A stretch of DNA of 63,994 bases, the filler included, from Streblomastix strix (taxonomy: Eukaryota), in assembly GCA_008636045.1 (NCBI GenBank). It is 3 parts of 3 records of this genome, joined end to end, with 100 filler letters (N's around TTAATTAATTAA, not from the genome) between each part and the next. Parts side by side here need not be neighbours in the genome. Positions count along the whole stretch, not along the records: positions 43,239 to 63,994 come from SNRW01000415.1; 2 more parts are not named here. One strand, 5' to 3'. The notes under the pieces were generated by a model that had not been told where the DNA came from, searched no databases, and saw only the letters and a list, made by a program, of their open reading frames with translations. The translations under genes were made by a program, and so were the position numbers. Each line of letters starts with the position of its first letter. Position 1 is the stretch's first letter. Of this stretch, positions 43,239 through 55,991 are shown piece after piece.

Positions 43239-43239
43239 T

Positions 43240-43554
43240 TATATGAAGGTAGATGATAAGGAAAAAATAAAATTAAAAGGTGTTAATCAAAATACTAATA
43301 AAATTACTAAAGACTAAATAGTTGATAATATAACCAATGGAACGATTACAAAATGCACAAATATGCGGTTAGGTTAAAAGAATTACCAAATGAGCAAATT
43401 AGCTACAGAAAAAAATGGAATTACGGGAATACACACAAAAATGGTGGTACTAAGTGATTAATCATGTTGTCCTTACATTTATGGTTTGAAAGCAAGTGAT
43501 TATACGGTCTCTGAGCATTAGCGTGAAACCATTTTTGATAAAAAAGTTTAATGA
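43240..43554 (+). CDS. C-terminal fragment of a protein-primed family B DNA polymerase
   Basis: YMKVDDKEKIKLKGVNQ...KNGITGIHTKMVVLSDQSCCPYIYGL; KxKGV motif and a terminal PY/F pattern typical of pPolB ends; viral context. Confidence 0.65.
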
Positions 43555-43570
43555 GCCAAAAATAATAAAT

Positions 43571-44242
43571 TCAATTCTTGGATATGATTATTTTTATGAC
43601 CATGGAACCATCAGGTTATTTATCTATATCGCACAAAATGCCTTTATGTTAATTTTAATCAATTTCTGGCCCTTTTACCCATTGCAAATTCTCCAATCTA
43701 TCATCTAAATAATTTTTATTTATGTGTTCAACAATAGATAAATTTTAAGGATTAGGTAAAAAATGTGTTGCTATTATTTTATCCAAGAAATACACCTAAC
43801 CATCTAATTTAATTTTGTGAAAACCATCTACTATGTCAATTATTTTAATATCTTTACTGTCTATTATTTTTATATGATATGGATATATAGTTTCTATCGT
43901 ATAATTCGGATGGTCTCGTAAGATATCACACAAAATGCCTTTATGTTAATTTTAATCAATTTCTGACTCTTTTACCCATTGCAAATTCTCTAGTCTATCA
44001 TCTAAATTATTTTTATTTATGTGTTCAACAATAGATAAATTTTAAGGATTAGGTAAAAAATGCGTTGCTATTAATTTATCCAAGAAATACACCTAACCAT
44101 CTAATTAAATTTTGTGAAAACCATCTTCTATACCAATTCTTTGAATATCTTTACTGTCTATTTTTTTTATATGATATGGATATTATGTTTCTATCGTATA
44201 ATTCGTATGGTCTCGTAAGATATGCGGATTATCAAATCCCAT
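43571..44242 (-). CDS. Protein made of two tandem HNH-endonuclease-like domains (223 aa)
   Basis: Twice IATHFLPNPQNLSIVEHINKN(N/Y)LDDRLENLQWV, matching the HNH_3/NUMOD-type pattern AxxFIPNPxNLPxVDHINxxxxDNRxxNLxW; 297-bp in-frame duplication. Confidence 0.8.
43627..44223. repeat. 297-bp tandem duplication (99 codons)
   Basis: Copies begin at 43627 and 43924 and are similar throughout. Confidence 0.95.
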
Positions 44243-44270: not shown

Positions 44271-44639
44271 TCATACCGATTATTTTTATGGCTAATTTAA
44301 TAGTTTAAGATATAAAATATATCTCCAATGAGTTGCCAGTTCCATATCTTTTTATTAAATTGCATCATTCAAAAATTGTTCGATTTGTTATACGGTTAGC
44401 TAAGACCAATTTATTTACGGTTCATTCTTGCTCATTTTTCTTTTATAAAAAAATTATATAACATAAACCGTTATATTTAGTGGTACCAGCACTATATCAA
44501 AATATCCCCATAACTTCTTAATTAAATTAACGGTATCGGTCAGCTGCTCAGGAATAGATACAGACAAAACAGATATAATAAAATTAACACCATAAAATAT
44601 ATAATTCATTAGACTCATAAACAAATTCAATAAGTTCAT
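44271..44639 (-). CDS. Viral hypothetical protein with hydrophobic N-terminus (or two small ORFs, the second starting at 44435)
   Basis: MNLLNLFMSLMNYIFYGVNFIISVL...VIQFFYKRKMSKNEPQINWSQLTVQQIEQFL...QSV-TGA. Confidence 0.55.
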
Positions 44640-44657
44640 TTTATTATTTTTAAAAAC

Positions 44658-45674
44658 ATGACACTGCAAGAGATATAGGGCATAACATTTTCAAACTAGG
44701 ATTTACTAAACGAATATAAAACACGACCACTAACCAAAAACTCCTTATTCCTCGTTAATGGAAACCATTATATTGTTGGAGCTGTTGGTTCAGGTAAAAC
44801 AACATTAATGTCCAAGCTAATAGTTATATACTAAAAAGTAATCAATCCATACATATTATACTTTTCAAATTTTGGTGCTGACGAGACAATGGCATTAAAT
44901 CTTAATAGTAAAAACATATCACTAACCAATATAACATATGGGGAAGCAATGTTGTTTTTACCAGAATTTGATGAAATAAAATATTCAACAAAAGAAGTAT
45001 ATACTTGGTATAAATTGCATGAGTAAGGTTTTAAATATACCAGTGATTTTATAAAAAGAGTCGAAGAAAAAATAATATAATAAAATGAAGCTAAAACTAA
45101 TGAAAAGTCAGAAGTTTATTTAAAACGAATAGCTGATTTGTTCAAATAATATGTTATAGAAACCATAAATAAATATAGCTAGCCATTTAAAATATTACAG
45201 TTTGATATTCCAGCACTTATATAAAATATTAGCTATGAAAAGAAAATGAAAGTAATAGATGATAAACAAACAGCTGATATAAAAATAATGAAAATACCAG
45301 TACTTTTTAAGGCATAATTGTTAAATACACTAATGCTTTTTGATGATATTGGAAGTAATGCCGATATCCAACGTTTTAATTCTTCACTTGCTAAATCAAT
45401 TACTCATTTGGTTAGTGATTCAAGGCATTCGAAAAATACGATATTTTTTATAGCTTAACGTCCAAGTTATTTGTTTAAGACTGCAAGGATATTATCCCAT
45501 GTAATAGCTATAGGGGTTAATCTTGGAGAGAGTGATTTCAAACAAGTATATGAAGAAAACACGATATAAAACCTTGATTTTGAAGAGTTTTTACTGCTAT
45601 ATTCCACATTATAAAAATATGAATTTATTATTTTAAATAAGCTTTTCAGCAAGTATGAAATATTAAGAAATTGA
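44658..45674 (+). CDS. A32-like (FtsK/HerA) genome-packaging ATPase, 338 aa
   Basis: Walker A IVGAVGSGKTT, Walker B LMLFDD, SRHSKNTIFFIAQ (RH...Q motif, Gln = TAA at 45456), KTAR; intronless. Confidence 0.92.
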
Positions 45675-45693: not shown

Positions 45694-46086
45694 ATGACTT
45701 CGTGCTAAGGCTCTCCGAAATCACCGTGTGATCCTTCAGCAATTCCTGATGGAATGGATTAATTGTATTAATTAGCCACAAACATTGGCCTATAATATAA
45801 TGCTACGGACTATGAAATTTTCAAAATATTTGAAGCATTAAAAGACGGAGGCTTACGACTTCCTACGGAAAGCCCCCATTGCGGACAAACTGGAGTAGAA
45901 AATAATGATATGAATGAACAAGAAAAATAAATATATCAATAGTTTAAAAGCCACTTTTTTTAACAAAAAATGCCGCAAAGCGACTATTGTTTTTAAGAAT
46001 CTTTGCAGGATAAAACTGTGTAAATATTAGAATATATTTAATACCTCAATTTATTGATGCGGTTAAATTCATCAAATAATAATTGA
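45694..46086 (+). CDS. Viral hypothetical protein; 3' end uncertain
   Basis: TAAATG start; MTSCQGSPKSPCDPSAIPDGMDQLYQLATNIG...; open to TGA 46084, overlapping the convergent ORF by about 40 nt. Confidence 0.55.
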
Positions 46087-46522
46087 CCAATCCACTATTT
46101 TATGTATCATTAACAAAGTCATTATATATTTATTTTTCCTGCTCATTAGCTTCAGATATAATGTACTTTTTTATTTGTTATGGCTAGTTATTTTAATCTA
46201 GTTGTTTTTTAATACAATTATATTTATTTTTGAAATATTTTTCTTACTCGTTGAACAGTTTATTTTTATAATCTTCTGCATCAACATACTGCTTTATTTG
46301 TTGTAATTTGTTTTACTAATTCATGAACAACTTATTTATTCTGGTTAGTTCTTAGAGTAATGGGTGCAGTATTATTTCTTTATCTTTTATTAATAATTTT
46401 TGCAGTGCGTCAATTGTTGCCTTTATTGAATCATCACTTTCAAAATTTTATTTAATTACTTCATTAAACAATTATTTTATAGGGTTTTTATTATCAATTG
46501 CTATAGGTGTTGGTGAGGACAT
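46046..46522 (-). CDS. Viral hypothetical helical protein (158 aa)
   Basis: TAAATG start; MSSPTPIAIDNKNPIKQLFNEVIKQNF...; no TGA until 46048. Confidence 0.65.
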
Positions 46523-46597
46523 TTATTTAAAAATAAATAACAATTTATAACAAAATAGTCCAATAATTAATGACTGCATTAGCATGAATGAAATGAA

Positions 46598-48649
46598 TCA
46601 TGGAGGTACTGACACCAAAGTAATAGGTTTAGCACGCTAATATACTTTTGCCCCATCGCTATAAAATCCCCCTTCTGTGCCTATACTATTTACACCCCAT
46701 AAAATAGGATTCCCTGCTGAATAATTAACTGACCCAGCCGCAGGCGGAGTCTATGACATTGTTGCTCCATTTGTTGCACCAGTGCCAGCTATAACTGACC
46801 CATTAAATGTTAAAGTATTTCCATCAGCGGATATTTATAAACCTTTACCAGATGTATTTTAGCCAGCTGTACGCACTATATTTAGCGTTCCGTCACCCTT
46901 TTTATATATTGACCATTATTTATCTATGTATCCAGAAGTAGTATTTGGATCACAACCTAATGATATTAGGCATAAATTATTTGTTGTATTAGCAATTCGT
47001 AAACTTTCACTATAATTTCCAGTTTAAGGATTAATTTAAAATGGAGATTAAAACATATTCGCGAATAATTAAAACCTAGTTGTGTAATCAGTAGGTAATG
47101 CATCAACCATATCACTATTTAATACATTTGATATCAAATCTGGAAATGTATTTTATCTCGATAGTTGTATATCAACACTATTACTCCACGCGTTCATATT
47201 ACACCATAACTCTCCATAGCCTGTAGTTCCTGACCCATAATATAAAATATAAGCTCTTTTTAAAAATGTGTTAGATTCAAAATGATAAGAGTATTGACCA
47301 ATTCCATTAGTGATATAATTTTAATTGAATTGTATTAATCCAAACGCATACCTGCAATTAATGTAAAATTCAACGGAAACATTATTTGATTAATTATATG
47401 GAATAAATTAACATAATTTAATATATTTTTCTGTAGTTGATACATAATAATTATTTTTAGCTAAAGCTACTTTTTTAGTTGTCCCATCAGCTAGTAGTAT
47501 TTCATTATTTGTGCCATTTGTCTTCTTAATTGTATCAAATGTTTTTATATCAGTAATGGTTTAATCAGATGCTATATCTACTACTCCGTTTATTGCATCA
47601 CCATTAGCGCAAAGTATTTCCGTAGCCAATCCTCCAGTCTTAATAAATTTGGTCGCGGTAATGTTTCCATCATATGTTAATTACTATGGATGGACATGGT
47701 CATTTCTACTATAAAAATCACTCATACCATTAGCCGCAGCAGTAGCATTTACTAACGGAACATTTGCAGTTGTTGGATCAACATTTAATGGGTGCTAATG
47801 TGTGGCACTGGCATATATATTAGCAGTGCCTGCTGTTCCTGTTCCCGTATCTTTTAGTGGTACGTCATTACTTAGATTTACATGATGCGTATGGTCAGAC
47901 CTGACATAAGTGGTAGCAACTCCTGCCTCACCATTTGCAGTATCTTTTGCAGGTAAAACAGTTGAAACTTACAAAGGATGTTAATGGTCTCCTCTTGCAT
48001 ATTCATTACTAGTTCCTGCATTACCATTTACAATAGAGTTTGATGGTATTGCATCACTGGCAGGGGTTACCTAATCAGGGACCACATCTCCACTCTTATA
48101 CCAATCAGCCGCAGGTGGGGATCCTGTCATATCATACATCCATACTGTTCCACTTTCTGTACTAAATGCAAAATCACCACTTGCTGAATTAGGCAAATTT
48201 TATATGACACTATTCAACAAATAATATCCACGGAAATGTATTTATCTCGCTAGTTCTTACTAAATAGTTAACACATCATTTTTTAATCCATCAATATCTT
48301 ACTCTACCCCTCCAATTGATGACTATAACTAGTTTACTTCATTAATTAACTAGTTAATTTATGCAACAAAATCAAAGTTTATTACCTTTAAATTCTTTAT
48401 TGTAAGAAGCCCATTTGGTGCTATTTTGAGTGCATAATCAGCAGCATAACCATCAACTATTTAGTTATTAGCTGCATAAACTAGTGCATTGTCATTATCT
48501 ATAAACAGTTAGTATTCATCATTTTGCAACATGCCACCGCTAGAGCTTCCCCTTTTCTAATACTGTATATAATACGCTATATCATTAGTGATAAGCTGGC
48601 GAACTGTTCGGATTTGTTGCTGTGTTAATGGATTATTTTAGGTAATCAT
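46598..48649 (-). CDS. Tail-fibre-like virion protein (683 aa) with coiled coil and HxH repeats
   Basis: YARGDHQHP, YVRSDHTHH, YASATHQHP, YSRNDHVHP; GGLATEILCANG, QTITDIKTF, GTNNEILLADG. Confidence 0.8.
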
Positions 48650-48700
48650 TTTAATTTTGCAAAAATAAAAAGTTTTACATGCAATTATTGGATATGGTTA

Positions 48701-48907
48701 TCACCGTTTATTTACGAGTCGATCTACGGCTCCTGCAAGATTAGCCCCAGCACCTAGTGCTCCACCAATTCCTGGGTGTATCATTCCTACAGGGCCTGAT
48801 ATTGTTGATAGTACCTTATGAAGAGTTGGTGCTACCCATTAAGCTGCATGCTTAATACCTCCCAAAATTTTACTTCCGATGTTTGCTATACCACTGAAAA
48901 ATCTCAT
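48701..48907 (-). CDS. Small Gly/Ala-rich amphipathic protein (68 aa), candidate membrane-penetration or core protein
   Basis: MRFFSGIANIGSKILGGIKHAAQWVAPTLHKVLSTISGPVGMIHPGIGGALGAGANLAGAVDRLVNKR; divergent from the MCP gene. Confidence 0.75.
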
Positions 48908-48931
48908 TTATTTATTTTTAAAAATATTAAA

Positions 48932-50924
48932 ATGTCGTTCTCAGCATCTGACTACCTTTAAAGACTATCCAAAATGCAACACTCCGACTACATTAGTGGA
49001 TACATGCAACTTGGTGAGGTGTTAAAAACACTATCAATTCATGCCTAATCCTTCGCAATTTCTAAGCAATAATTTTTTGACTGACCAGTAAATTAGCTTA
49101 CATCATCAGGTGTTAGATATACACGTGCGCCGTTGGCTGCTAGAGGTACAGCAACTTGTTCAATGGTATAAACCTGCTAAGTAAATTGGACTATAACAAT
49201 CCCAGCAAATATATTAGCTGTATAACTAAATAGATGTGAAGATTCAGGAGGTGACGAAGACGAATTAAGAGCAAGGGTTAATTTTAATGCAAATAATGAC
49301 CTTGCAGAAGACCCCAAGATTATGACATAATTCTACAAAAAATATTATGGTAAAACTGGTGATGGTGAAGAAAAAAGTGAACATCTGAAGTTTTGGCTTG
49401 GTTTCTCCACTGCTTGCGAACCCTTTAATTAGTTTGCAATATTACGAGATGCTTAAAACTTATAGAATACAGCAATATATGCGAGAGAGTAAGCAGTTAT
49501 TTGTTCAAATTCATTAACAGATTTATGCACCAATAATTCCGTCAGTGTCTCACCACTCGAGTCCATCATTGCTGGCAAACGTCATTGTGGTATTTTTATG
49601 GATATTCCACTTAGTGATATAGATTTATAAGCTACAGTAGCAGATGGATAACCAAGAACACCATATTATTTTAGAATACCATATGATATAAAATTTAGCG
49701 GTGTATTAGATTTGAACTAATTAAATCCAATTTTTAACTCATTCCCAGTACTGACAAGAAACTATGCATCATTATACTTATAGCTATGGGTGTAGGATTT
49801 CCTTTAAGATTTAAAAAATTGTGTGGCTAAATAAATCAGATGTTATGTAAAATAATCATCTTGCATATGCAATGATTCCACCAGAGAAGCCAGACGTCGT
49901 TTATCTATTAAGTAAAGAAGAGGATGAGGACCCACAGGCATATTCATTGTATAATGTTAGGCTCGTTAATATGTAAAATGTTGCGAATAACGCAAAAGTA
50001 CCATAAAATTCCATTAGTCAAATATCAGATTCTAAATTCGAAGAGCAAGAAATATAAAATGTATGTTTTAATATAGAAAATGAAGAGGCAATTATTCAGA
50101 TGATATAAGCCTAAAGAATAATAAATTTCCCCACACAAATCATAAGGTCCTAATCTTCAAATTTTCCCTTCAGTGGTTTTTAGGCTGTTTCTGGTAGTAT
50201 GTAAAGTATAATGTCATTTGCTAATATAAAGGCACTATTCATGACATTTGCCATGCCACAATATCCTACTTGGTTTTTCCCTGTATTATTTTATAACTTT
50301 AATTTAGTTGTTGATTAAAAGAATTTAATACCATAACCATATAAAGCACTGACCCAAACAACTAATAGCTAAATGTTTGATTGTTTTGTTGATTAGGATG
50401 TTGTAAGTGCTCCATCAGACCTATACCATTCACTTACTTTTGAAAATGTAAATGTTGATGATAAAAACAATTTTTATGGATATGTTGACCCTGCAGGTGA
50501 TGTAGGAACTACTGCTAATATATTTTATAATACAACATTATACAATGGAAGCAAAGCCACAAAAACATTATACCCAAATAAGTTTATGCTGGCATGGAAA
50601 ATGGCAACTGATGACTCATTTATGAGAGGTTAAAACTCTTCAAAAATTGGTGCTAGGACAAATATTTAAGTGATTTTAAACGGAAATTTGACTAAAGGAA
50701 TTGTAGATACTACAAAATTATATCCATCATAGAATTAAAACGATTTTAAGCAATTTATTGGTATGCGTAGCTATCTGGATCCTCACCAGGTAGCACTGAC
50801 ACCTATCATGCACTATTTATGTGATGCATTTATTCGCATAACTTTTGATGTTAACCCAGACCCATAAGTATTAAGCATGGATGTTATTGGAGAAATAGGC
50901 GGTTCATCAATTAGAAGCGGATGA
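48932..50924 (+). pseudogene. Probable double-jelly-roll major capsid protein (about 660 aa) with one in-frame TGA and one +1 frameshift
   Basis: Long intronless beta-rich ORF near the ATPase and fibres; VLDLNQLNPIFNSFPVLTRNYASLYLQLW; TGA at 49082; extra A in the run near 49813-49818; span 1993 nt = 3n+1. MCP identity rests on size, context and composition. Confidence 0.65.
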
Positions 50925-50984
50925 GGTGATTAATGGGCTAAAAATAAAATTGGTTTATCATTATTTTTGTTTATTATTCCTTTC

Positions 50985-51036
50985 GGCCTGCTTTGCAGCC
51001 CTTACTTTTTTAACAAAAATGCCGCCTCTGGCGACT
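50985..51036. terminator. Bidirectional hairpin plus T-tract element between convergent viral genes
   Basis: Plus: GGC(C)TGC-TTT-GCAGCC then CTTACTTTTTT; minus: GTCGCC-AGA-GGCGGC then ATTTTTGTT directly after a TGA; related copies at 45955-45985 and 54220-54246. Confidence 0.5.
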
Positions 51037-51176
51037 CATCCATGTATTGAATTCCTAACCTCTTCGCTAATTTCTTCGCTATCCATTTTTATTTAAGCTA
51101 TCACCAATATACAACCAAGCAAATTATTACAAGCTATAACTATTAATGATATACTAGTTATTATTTCCCAAATCAT
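51036..51176 (-). CDS. Small viral single-pass membrane protein (46 aa)
   Basis: TAAATG start; MIWEIITSISLIVIACNNLLGCILVIAQIKMDSEEISEEVRNSIHG. Confidence 0.55.
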
Positions 51177-51201
51177 TTATATAAAAATAAAATTAAATTT
51201 T

Positions 51202-51327
51202 TCACCGGCAAATTTTCGATTCGCAAGCATATTTGATTGCTGCATCCCAAATAGCCTTAAAGATTGCATGCCAATTTATATTTAATTATTCAAGCGAATA
51301 TATTACTGTTTCATTAAATCCGTCCAT
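51202..51327 (-). CDS. Small viral ORF (41 aa)
   Basis: TAAATG start; MDGFNETVIYSLEQLNINWHAIFKAIWDAAIKYACESKICR. Confidence 0.5.
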
Positions 51328-51345
51328 TTATTTATTTTTAAAATG

Positions 51346-52251
51346 TCAACCTGATTAATTATAAACAGCATATGAATCACATACTTATACACAAAAATCA
51401 TTTGGCAAATTAATTTGGCACTACGTATTTATTACAACATTACCGTTAGGATTAATATAACAATCCATAGCAATTGCACCGGTCCAATCTATTGGATAGC
51501 CATATACTTTTTACGCAAATAAAACAGCATTAAGGGGTATGTTATGTGTTGTGCCAGAAAATTTTGGTTTTATGTCGTTATTGAAGATAGAAAATAATGT
51601 ATATCCCCCGTAGCATGATGTGCTTGGATCTGAATGAGTTATTTACAGAGATATATATGCACGTTCTTTTTAAGATTTTACGGTACCCCAAATTAATTAT
51701 TCATACCTACCATAAGCAATAGACCAATAAATTGCATATTCGATAGGGACAGGAGGAAGAGGTGATACAATTTAATTGTTAAATTTAAGTGTTGAACATT
51801 CGAAATCGATAATTATACCCTTATAATCATATGCTTAATCTTCTTATTTTTATATCCTAAATTACGATGAAGTTGAACCCATTTTCCATACCCCGTCCGT
51901 ATCTGTGGGATCAACGTTGCAACCAGTGAGCACAAAGCTATCCCAATTCGCTTTATTTTTCATTATCCTTATGCCTTAATTACGTATGTCATCATTTGGT
52001 TCTATAGTCAATTAACCCATCGCGTGAGGAAAATATTTAGGCAAAAAATTCCCTGTGTCTGTAGTATCACCATTAGCGAGTAAAATTTCATTGCTTGTAC
52101 CTTTATTTTTAATGAATTTTTATGCAACAATAGGCTATAAAAAAGTCTTTACTCCGTCTATTATTTGACTAGTTCGTAAATTTACGTAATCAATTGAATT
52201 TCTGAAAAATTGACTTAAATAGTTAAAGTATTTAATAATTTCGTTATCCAT
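51346..52251 (-). CDS. Second fibre-like protein (301 aa; in-frame upstream ATG at 52392)
   Basis: YVNLRTSQIIDGVKTF, FIKNKGTSNEILLANG shared with the first fibre; beta-rich C-terminal head-like region. Confidence 0.75.
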
Positions 52252-52416
52252 TATTTATAAAAGAGTATTTTTTTATCTAGTTTAATTTTGTTATTCTTCT
52301 TGTATTTTTTATAATCGTTTTTATTCTTCCTACTAGTTTTTCAAATCATCATCGTCTAACAGCGATAAATCGCTAATTGGTTAATCAATCATTTTATTAT
52401 CCAAAAATAAATCATA

Positions 52417-53082
52417 TCATTCGTTTTACATAATAATCAATACAAAATAATTTTCAAAAATCATTTTCTGTTATTTCCATCTCTGGTGCTTCGCTTGAAC
52501 GGATGAAATCGCAATTTACTCGATAAAGTTTTTCAATAGAGTTATATATAGCACATTATCCAACACTTTTACAGACACATTTTTTATTAAAATATCTTAT
52601 ACTCTAATAAGGTCCTTTTTCTTGAATTTCTTTGATATGCAAGTGTGTGGTTATATAATTGCTTCCTCAAGCACTATTTCAACATCATTTTCATCATTCT
52701 GCGTGATCAGTGCCCAAAATTTTATAAAATTATCAGATGAAAAAACAAAATCATCTCCGCGTTATCTGTGGGTAATGGTGCGCCAGCACGTATCAATTAC
52801 AAACTTTTATACTATGAGATTAGGATGTGATAGGTATATACTTTTTGGTTATTCTTCTGCTAACTATTAAAATGCCTCTTCCGGTAATACTTATGCGGTT
52901 GTTCTATCAACCTCTTTATACTTATTTATGTTATATTTTTTATGTGGTATGTTTTCATTCTAATTTTATTGTGCTGTTTCTTAGTCTGTTGGCATTGTTT
53001 TTATACGATTAATTGCTTCATCGATTAGTTAGAGTCTAATTTTATCCTCATCTGTAAGCTCTTTTTTCTTGATATCCGACAT
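52417..53082 (-). CDS. Viral hypothetical protein (221 aa)
   Basis: TAAATG start; MSDIKKKELTDEDKIRLQLIDEAINRIK...; open to TGA. Confidence 0.65.
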
Positions 53083-53160
53083 TTATTTTTTACTCTTCGA
53101 CATTCTTACTTGATTTCTTTCAATACCCTTAATCATTTTATTAATTTTTAAAATATTAAA

Positions 53161-53826
53161 ATGGAATTATCGCATGCTCTTAAGAATTTGATAGAAAATG
53201 GAACAAATATTGAATACTTTGATAAAGATTATGTGGTATAGATTAATAAATAAATAAAGGTATATGAAGACGGCAAAAAACAACTGCGAAAATTGACACA
53301 AACATAATAAAATAAGCTATTGCTATAAGCTCGTGGAGGGGGATAAATAAATAAAAAACCATCAAAATAAATAGTTTAAAAATAAGCTGTGGATGAAGAA
53401 GAAGATTTTATAAATTATGAATAATAGGAGGAAAGACACCGAGATATACAGGATGATATAAATGAAAGCGATGATGAAACAATTAGCCAAAGCGAAAGAC
53501 CCGAAAGGCCAATAAAACATTTCCGTGAGGCTAAACAACCACATAAAAAAGTTATAAAAGCATCAAAATAGCCATAAATCAATTATACAAATCAATAGCT
53601 TAATTTGGAAGAATTAATACGTTTAAGAACTGAAAATAATTTTATAAAGTAATAGCATTAAGACGCTATAAAATAAATAGAGAAATACAAGCAAAAAGTA
53701 AAACGTTATAAACAACCAAAATAAGACATTGAAAAATAGGAAGAATAACAAGATTTATAACAAGAGCCTATATAATAAAATTATTAGCCTGAATAAAAAT
53801 TTAGCGAATATGATTTATATAATTGA
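53161..53826 (+). CDS. Viral hypothetical acidic/coiled-coil protein (221 aa)
   Basis: MELSHALKNLIENGTNIEYFDKDYVVQ...; upstream TTTTAAAATATTAAAATG as at the MCP gene. Confidence 0.7.
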
Positions 53827-53854
53827 AAGAATTATTTTTTTACTAATTATAAAA

Positions 53855-54142
53855 ATGAATATTAATATTATCGATATAGACGAATAGGGTAAAATATGTG
53901 CTATTGGTAATATTCCATGGAATAATCTACATAAATTTTAGTTATCAAATAATTAACTACTTTTAACAATGAACCAAATAAATGATTACTAAGAAAAAAT
54001 AAAAACAATTAACGGCGATGAACTTTTTAATTATATTAGTGAAATGCGGGTGCTTAGTGAAAAGTAAAATAAATTACGTAATGAATATGTAAAACAAGAA
54101 AAATAACGCTATCGTTAAAAGCTAAAAGAAATGGATGATTGA
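53855..54142 (+). CDS. Viral hypothetical protein (95 aa)
   Basis: MNINIIDIDEQGKICAIGNIPWNNLHKF...KEMDD-TGA. Confidence 0.6.
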
Positions 54143-54428
54143 CTTTTTGGCACATTGGCGGCTCGACTGGCTTTTTTTATGACAATTTTTTACCCGGAAC
54201 ACTCGGAACACCTGGAACGGTCCACGGCTATGGCATTTTTTGTTAAATCTCCATGCTAAAATTATTATATAAATTATGTGTATCCATTATTTGTTGTTAT
54301 ATATTGTTATAAATTGATGTGGTGGCTTATTGGAGATATTTTTTTAAAAAGCATTTTTTAACCGTTATTTATTTATTTTAATTATTTTATATAAGGGGTT
54401 TATATTCATTATTTATTTTGCACATTAA

Positions 54429-54677
54429 AGTAGTATATGATGGTTATTTATGCAATAACTTCAAAAGGTATTAGAATTTATAAAAAACCACGCAAGTTCT
54501 TTTTTTTAAGTTGATGGTCTAACAAATGCAATAATATTTTCGAACAAAGGCGTTAGCCAGCTGTGAGAAAATTTTATAAATTTGAAGGCCAAAAATCTTA
54601 AAAAATGAAGGAGTGGAGATTTTTTATAAAACTGAACACTTTTGAAGTTGGGGCATAAATCACCATCATATACTACT
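54429..54677. repeat. 249-bp imperfect palindrome with AGTAGT...ACTACT ends
   Basis: Outer 39 nt of the two arms match at 35 positions; similarity continues inward to a GGC-GTTA-GCC centre at 54549-54558. Confidence 0.9.
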
Positions 54678-55991
54678 GACATAGCCAACTCATGTTGTTC
54701 ATATTTTATTCTTATATTGTTTTAATTATTTGTTATAATTTTACATTTACAAAATTTTATTTTTCATTCATTTTTAACTTAATTTATTTTTACAATTTTT
54801 TTTTCGTTGAAAATCATGTGTCCTAAGTTATGGAAACTTAAATATATTGTTTTAATAAATTATCTAATATATATAGATTTACTCACACAATTTTTTATTG
54901 ATGATCAATTTTTCATTGTAAACAAAACTACAAGGTATATAAATTCAAAAACTATAAAAATCGTTTACGATTTACGAAAAATCGAACTGGTTGTAGTTAT
55001 AATGTGGTAGTATCAATTAAATTTTCTAAAGATTGCATAATATAAGACAAAATTTTTGTTGTATTTCACAGAAATGACCTCAATTCTTTTGAGAGCCAAG
55101 AAATAAAGGAGACGAAATTTACTGTGATTGTGAGCATATCATAAAAAATTGCTCTAGTAATTCTACTTTAAAGAGTAATTTCCATATTTCAGACACAAAT
55201 TTAAATCTTGTACTACTTCCTATTCATTTGATCTGCACTCGAAAACTCCTAATTATTCCACACCGCTATCTTTTATTTAAATTATTTATTTTATTATGTA
55301 TTTTGATGTTTCTTCCAATATTTTGTACAAATATATTTATAATTTCCTACATTATTACTGTTTTAGTTGGACAAAAATATGCGAGATTTAAATGCTTCAT
55401 TTCTCATAATCGACATTATTTAGATCATTTCCAATTGTTCATAATTAAATAATAGTTTATTGTTCACAATTTATTAATATAAATTTTTTTGATCATATCT
55501 TTTCAAAGATGTTATGCTTCTGGGAATTCATTTCATTTTTCCTACATATTTTTTTTATCCTTTGATTTTTTTAATTATTTTGTTTTTTAATTCTTAATTT
55601 AGAACATCCGTCTTATGCATTTATCAATTATAAAACTATCATGTCCAAGTCAGCAACTGCCGTATACTTGTTTATAATTGCCAGAAATAGGTTACAACTG
55701 CTGCACGCTGGTTTGCAACAGTCACAGACTTGTACATACTGGATACTGATTGATGGCTGAAAAGCATTTATTATCTATTAATTTGTATATCAAATACTTA
55801 ATTTTATGACTTCTAAGCTTCGCTCCTCAATTTATTACTCAATTTTCATATTTCTTTCCAAATAATATTTGATATTATTTATCTATAATTTTAAAACTAT
55901 CAAAATATTACATTTCTTTTCATATTCAACTTATTTTTATTATTAATTTATTTATTTAATATCTTAATCCTCGCGTTTGCTCAGTTTATCA

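Follow-up and report, generated by a model that had tools for sequence, protein, structure and literature searches.

A hairpin and T-run motif at convergent gene junctions likely marks transcript 3′ ends in an endogenous Polinton-like virus of Streblomastix strix

The DNA analysed here (63,994 nt, hereafter the window) comes from the termite-gut oxymonad Streblomastix strix (GCA_008636045.1), and its last part, contig SNRW01000415.1, begins at position 43239 with a compact run of viral genes that extends to approximately 54700. This run is an 11.5-kb endogenous Polinton-like virus in which a short hairpin followed by a conserved AT-rich core recurs four times. TAA and TAG encode glutamine in both S. 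strix and its virus; the standard code yields nine open reading frames (ORFs) of at least 80 amino acids across 64 kb, and long ORFs appear once the glutamine code is applied. The right flank of the element is host-type sequence, whereas its left end is cut by a contig gap. Contigs from four sequencing runs of three studies covered 30 of 30 bins between 45600 and 55000 in many variants, and the depth dropped near 54700. An imperfect 250-nt palindrome (54429-54677; 71% self-match, −95.7 kcal/mol) lies at the right element edge and might represent a structure of the terminus or else a small foldback element. Neither an integrase nor a terminal repeat pair was seen in the portion of the element within the window, whose left end is cut by the contig gap. 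Searches of viral and metagenome contigs found no related loci, and an exact look-up of ten translations from the window gave no match.

Along the element lie the following features:

43243-43554, plus strand: C-terminal piece of a presumably pPolB-like gene, truncated by the contig start (assumed from resemblance; no family match)
43506-43547, plus strand: motif copy 4, new here; hairpin and CATTTTTGATAAAAAAGT, core at 43530-43547, within the final codons of the pPolB-like ORF, where this meets the HNH gene at a convergent junction
43571-44242, minus strand: HNH endonuclease with two tandem domains (Pfam HNH_3, E 5e-10) and a 297-nt repeat
44658-45674, plus strand: probable packaging ATPase of the P-loop type (its translation has Walker A and B-like motifs; only a weak PHROG match)
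45694-46086, plus strand: orfA, an ORF of 130 codons that carries three extras not shared with other copies (approximately 60, 54 and 30 nt, the last being motif copy 1), as judged from a homologous gene model (P0121) and, for the first two, contig DNA joints from three studies
45953-45985, minus strand: motif copy 1; GTCGC-TTT-GCGGC hairpin and ATTTTTTGTTAAAAAAAGT, 61 nt past the orfB stop; its plus strand forms 10 in-frame codons of orfA
46046-46522, minus strand: orfB, an ORF of 158 codons with a 41-nt overlap with the 3′ end of orfA
46598-48649, minus strand: first fibre-like ORF, 683 codons, no family match above the cut-off
48701-48907, minus strand: 68-codon ORF, divergent from the capsid gene, with an amphipathic-looking start
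48932-50924, plus strand: major capsid protein gene, identified by homologs and broken here by an early stop and a frameshift
50984-51011, plus strand: hairpin after the capsid gene
51004-51036, minus strand: motif copy 2; GTCGCC-AGA-GGCGGC hairpin and ATTTTTGTTAAAAAAGT, adjoining the stop of a 46-codon ORF
51036-53136, minus strand: head-to-tail run of ORFs comprising orfC, the second fibre-like ORF and ORFs of 41 and 46 codons, ending at copy 2
53161-54142, plus strand: head-to-tail run of ORFs comprising orfD and orfE, ending before copy 3
54219-54247, plus strand: motif copy 3; weak hairpin and ATTTTTTGTTAAA, 77 nt past the last plus-strand gene, in a cluster of GC-rich 8-9-nt repeats

The conserved core reads CAT(5-6)G(A/T)TA(3-7) and follows a short hairpin, the stem sequence of which differs from copy to copy, with the base G-C pair and the core retained. 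The original prediction, made from the DNA alone, had described three copies of the motif and a further hairpin with a T-tract after the capsid gene. All of these were present as written, apart from minor positional shifts (start of the copy 1 hairpin at 45984, end of copy 3 at 54247). A fourth copy on the plus strand had been overlooked, and was discovered through a similarity search with copy 2 that used sequence alone. The capsid-gene hairpin does not count as a separate site, given that its T-tract is the A-tract of copy 2 read on the reverse strand. The region upstream of copy 3 (54147-54236) contains GC-rich repeats of 8 nt (TGGC) and 9 nt (GGAACAC) as well as T7 and T6 runs, and varies among copies of the element.

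The motif is real and, within the window, virus-specific. The core was counted four times in the element and not once in 52 kb of host DNA, and 0 of 300 shuffles reached four; the pattern was, however, set after the sites had been seen, and a looser T5+N3A3+ pattern matches host DNA as well. An unbiased word search of the element (11-14-mers, homopolymers capped, at least three G/C) singled out GGCATTTTT; no other word had three widely spaced copies, and this one occurs exactly three times in the window, always within the viral element. Markov simulations gave such words in 0, 1, 4 and 0 cases per 150 runs, and four host chunks gave none. A generic terminator scan found six candidates against 4.6 ± 2.4 in shuffles, i.e., no enrichment, and a loose 13-mer with one mismatch allowed occurred at chance level. 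Scans of viral contigs for the motif gave no match. In metagenome contigs, the motif string had two exact matches (L001 995-1016 and L002 1501-1522), both from one unrelated bacterial locus, where a hairpin with a T-run lies between convergent genes for an RNA-binding protein and a sensor kinase, a non-homologous but terminator-like design.

Other origins of the sites were considered and rejected. A spliceosomal intron at copy 1 would have a GT..AG reading of just 31 nt on the strand opposite to orfA. An adapter or assembly artefact was ruled out because copy 2 is carried by a contig of another study, which crosses the site with five differences in 89 nt and no gap; only seven contig records lie at copy 2, and they gave no sign of stem covariation to read, nor does an uncovered stretch there prove anything. 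For a known structured RNA family, Rfam gave five weak matches, all far under the gathering score.

The placement of the motif supports a 3′-end role. The 15 genes of the element form 14 junctions (three convergent, eight tandem and three divergent), and the core lies within approximately 100 nt of all three convergent junctions and none of the 11 others (p = 0.003, Fisher test). The core at each convergent junction reads T5-7, N3, A5-7, so that either strand has a T-run. A partly independent check comes from copy 4, which was found from sequence alone, sits at the one remaining convergent junction (chance approximately 0.02) and follows a hairpin of −5 kcal/mol or lower. Copy 3 ends the last plus-strand gene run without a supported opposing gene (a weak line of evidence, from coding scores); it is the sole copy lacking a reverse T-run, and its short A-run (three A) makes it one-directional. 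The ORF at 54406-54771 (orfF) is counted neither among the genes nor in the junctions, since it scored as non-coding; including it would give 4/4. Coding scores are weak evidence here, with one of the six training segments out of frame and one gene (small1) retained despite a slightly negative score. The original prediction placed each copy in sense orientation after a gene end. Copies 1-3 do lie past a gene stop, copy 1 following a minus-strand gene, but copy 1 is also inside the plus-strand orfA, which thus contains its reverse T-run. The T-run of copy 4 lies upstream of the pPolB-like stop, and its reverse T-run starts 25 nt past the HNH stop.

The folding energies of the hairpins of copies 1, 2 and 4 range from −5.8 to −9.2 kcal/mol, so that a GC-rich hairpin right before a U-run, as in intrinsic terminators, is present in three of the four copies. 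A hairpin of −5 kcal/mol or lower at a T-run, as in copy 4, was found at just 4 of the 134 other T-runs of the element. A folding advantage on the sense strand, where alone the original prediction had the U-G wobble work, held for copies 1 and 2 only; the hairpins of copies 3 and 4 and that after the capsid gene fold better on the opposite strand.

The gene starts also follow a pattern. The sequence TATTTTT precedes 7 of 15 candidate starts by 5-14 nt, compared with 8 of 479 other ATGs of the element. Divergent ATGs lie only 18-24 nt apart (44639-44658, 48907-48932 and 53136-53161) and have a T-rich/A-rich spacer in common; these spacers are likely extremely compact two-way promoters. Several viral starts read TAAATG, resembling the TAAAT/TAAAN initiator described for poxviruses and yeast virus-like elements in the available text of PMC6211774. 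As A-rich start contexts are normal for oxymonads (PMC8767320, available text), these starts are only a hint.

A T-run alone is unlikely to be the signal. With proteins and codon usage fixed, the viral coding strands contained nine T6+ runs (8.3 expected) and nine TTTTTNT sequences (8.9 expected), and bare poly-T and TTTTTNT signals were rejected because neither is avoided there. Host exons avoid coding-strand T-runs (T5+: 4 against 15.7 expected; T6+: 0 against 3.7 expected), whereas viral genes do not (T5+: 28 against 20.9 expected). This contrast could hint at different RNA-processing machinery.

Regarding the other genes, the fibre-like label of both ORFs (46598-48649 and one in 51036-53136) is our assumption from resemblance, with no family match, and the likeness of the 68-codon ORF (48701-48907) to membrane-lytic virion peptides is likewise assumed. 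The capsid ORF had 258 homologs, the best 120 of which were all S. strix proteins, several of them labelled major capsid protein. As to a double jelly-roll fold, its protein model was too poor for use (predicted local distance difference test, pLDDT, 42.9) and gave no fold match, and neither PDB nor Pfam gave a match. A word-index search found no homologs of orfA or orfB. A 33-nt inverted repeat (45913-45945 and 46115-46147) flanks copy 1, and both orfA and orfB encode NEQEKQIY there. In the first fibre-like ORF, two GC-rich segments (46733-46759 and 48100-48129) have CAGCCGCAGG in common, and loose contig ends suggest that the first is missing from many copies. Contig joints connect the stretches that follow the two fibre-like genes (46480-46598 and 51176-51193), suggesting cassette exchange among copies.

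Taken together, these observations make it likely that viral transcripts end at the motif. More specifically, we estimate a probability of approximately 0.55 that it is a family-specific 3′-end signal common to gene blocks, which would act like a hairpin/U-tract terminator; this describes a likeness and does not assign the motif to a class. The 3′-end role suggested originally thus gains from the placement (3/3 vs. 0/11), the absence from host DNA and the fourth copy with its hairpin, although the analogies named in its favour fit less well. Under this reading, each gene would have its own compact promoter, with TATTTTT 5-14 nt before an A-rich ATG, and the transcripts of one head-to-tail run would end together at the motif. 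The polymerase would pause at the hairpin, and release or nearby cleavage would be set off by the U-run and the fixed tail behind it, while the T-N3-A core would let converging runs use one site. The polymerase might be a viral or helper-virus enzyme and not host RNA polymerase II, which is the least supported step. It is doubtful, but conceivable, that oxymonad Polinton-like viruses have a transcription grammar of their own, with promoters of 18-28 nt, pox-like TAAAT starts and two-way hairpin/U-run terminators, pointing to non-polymerase-II transcription in an amitochondriate gut protist, either by a giant-virus helper yet to be discovered or by a polymerase that the virus itself encodes. 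Cassette shuffling may also carry the terminator to new places as an insert of 30 bp.

Several points weigh against this reading. The whole case rests on four sites, one protein homolog and contig joints among those listed, and all motif counts come from a single copy of the element. The hairpin of copy 3 is negligible (−1.1 kcal/mol). No RNA polymerase gene was seen in the portion of the element within the window. The set of host exons (eight stretches between 11249 and 62211) was trimmed by eye, a possible bias in the T-run contrast. The T-run of copy 4 ends 15 nt ahead of the pPolB-like stop, and the plus-strand T7 of copy 1 lies approximately 120 nt ahead of the orfA stop, so that release at the U-run would truncate both reading frames; this requires the signal to be leaky or directional, or else to act through cleavage slightly downstream. 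As convergent junctions are the only promoter-free spaces, placement alone does not separate a signal from harmless insertions. The homolog of orfA found in S. strix, the only one, matches both sides of copy 1 without the 10 residues; copies 1 and 2 are 30-nt units bounded by AGT/ACT repeats, as insertions would be; and one contig joint (50981-51036), with a shorter side of just 21 nt, lacks both hairpins of the copy 2 site.

In the main rival explanation, the motif units would be tiny mobile or copy-inserted hairpins without any role in transcription, which survive only at promoter-free sites (convergent junctions, gene tails and a dispensable ORF). We regard this explanation as rather unlikely. 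The best gap placement against P0121 removes exactly the 10 codons of the motif (45955-45984), although this gene model could include a false intron, and slippage between the repeats could have removed the unit from the homolog, leaving the same empty sites. The boundary repeat of copy 1 is imperfect (8/9) and was reached at 104 of 11482 random positions, whereas a 3-nt boundary repeat occurs by chance at 1086 of them (9.5%); the repeats are AGT at copies 1 and 2, TCCA at copy 3 and GT at copy 4. Yeast mitochondrial GC clusters, which are many near-identical GC-rich hairpins of 30-80 nt in AT-rich DNA, are likewise flanked by AG or ACT repeats and insert into coding genes, according to the available text of PMC4478555 and PMC4464245. 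Many near-identical dispersed copies were not found here: the four copies are divergent and absent from the 52 kb of host DNA, and neither the copy 3 nor the copy 4 hairpin is related in sequence to those of copies 1 and 2, as recent copies would be. Two further GC-rich in-frame extras of orfA (45694-45753 and 45843-45896) are missing from contigs of three studies, but their sequence is unrelated to the motif, and no joint removing copy 1 was present among the best-supported contig joints listed. Because most gaps between tandem or divergent genes consist of 18-28 nt of DNA resembling promoters, motif copies inserted elsewhere would be purged.

Transcription by host RNA polymerase II with ordinary AAUAAA-type cleavage, in which the motif would only cause pausing or act as a roadblock where transcripts converge, or would be an accessory element rich in U, is distinctly improbable. 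Virus and host have the same genetic code, the related oxymonad Monocercomonoides uses AAUAAA/AAAUAA within U-rich flanks according to the available text of PMC8767320, and AAUAAA-type hexamers occur at the orfB stop (−10), past the 46-codon ORF (+60 and +69) and past the capsid stop. However, such hexamers abound in the coding strands of virus and host alike and are therefore uninformative, orfE has none within 120 nt past its stop, and the motif is absent from host DNA. It is very improbable that the T-N3-A dyad is instead a DNA-level site (protein binding or recombination) for cassette shuffling, or that its reverse strand (T-run, AAC, AAAAATG) is an antisense promoter or start context. The contig joints 46480-51176, 51193-46598 and 54197-51004 indicate cassette rearrangement among copies (their orientation not being shown), and the reverse strand of the motif resembles the viral gene-start pattern; yet copy 1 is not a crossover point, since both its flanks are colinear with one homolog, and the reverse-strand ATG ORFs of copies 2 and 3 had non-coding scores, which are weak evidence.

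A defined end signal together with a promoter pattern would provide a sequence handle for searching giant-virus contigs from termite guts, and bears on the transcription of most Polinton-like viruses and on their possible dependence on a giant-virus helper. If the units are mobile hairpins instead, a nuclear viral genome would contain a mini-element of the GC-cluster kind. In the literature searched (main texts, mostly of non-subscription papers), no description of the motif was found. Metamonada-group endogenous Polinton-like viruses reported from S. strix have the genetic code of their host (PMC10120064, available text). The present element fits this group because the best 120 homologs of its capsid ORF are all S. 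strix proteins, several with the major capsid label, and host, genetic code and capsid family are alike; the words "hairpin", "terminator" and "promoter" are absent from the main text of that paper.

Comparison with known systems shows partial likenesses. As in bacterial intrinsic (Rho-independent, including two-way) terminators, a short GC-rich hairpin precedes a U-run between convergent genes. Here, however, the U-run is just 5-6 nt long, an A precedes it and a conserved G(A/T)T-A tail follows, in a eukaryotic virus, and two U-runs overlap between two outer hairpins, whereas in bacterial two-way terminators they flank one. The original prediction also named poxviruses, mimivirus and virophages. 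The poxvirus analogy fits poorly, as TTTTTNT and T6 are not avoided in viral coding strands, so that a poly-T signal of the African swine fever virus (ASFV) type or a vaccinia early UUUUUNU signal is unlikely here; the likeness lies in the coding-strand T-run and in terminators that are common to several genes, whereas ASFV needs no hairpin (PMC10965686, available text). The mimivirus hairpin polyadenylation signal is not conserved in sequence (PMC4402537, available text) and is borrowed at 16 genes by Sputnik (PMC6723459, available text), a structure-based 3′ end of viral transcripts adopted by a small dependent virus; the analogy is weakened because the core is conserved here and found at four block ends only, one per gene block and not one per gene. 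GC clusters resemble the motif as GC-rich hairpins in AT-rich DNA with AG/ACT repeats, insertion into coding genes and presence or absence among copies, but four divergent copies with a common AT-rich tail, one per gene-block end, differ from what the accessible text of the GC-cluster papers describes.

The system most like this one may be that of the yeast cytoplasmic virus-like elements pGKL1/2, in which termination at a stem-loop and U-tract has been shown functionally (PMC6211774, available text). Both are AT-rich, compact linear-DNA elements with TAAAN-like starts, and both have modest hairpins near stops, often within neighbouring coding sequence, followed by U-rich ends. As far as the available text of that study goes, pGKL1/2 differ in having no common sequence motif, in contrast to the fixed core here, and in encoding their own RNA polymerase, none of which was seen here, and their termination is shown, whereas ours is read from the DNA. 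By analogy, the stem-loop and U-tract of these yeast elements would be the closest working model for transcript ends in the S. strix virus.

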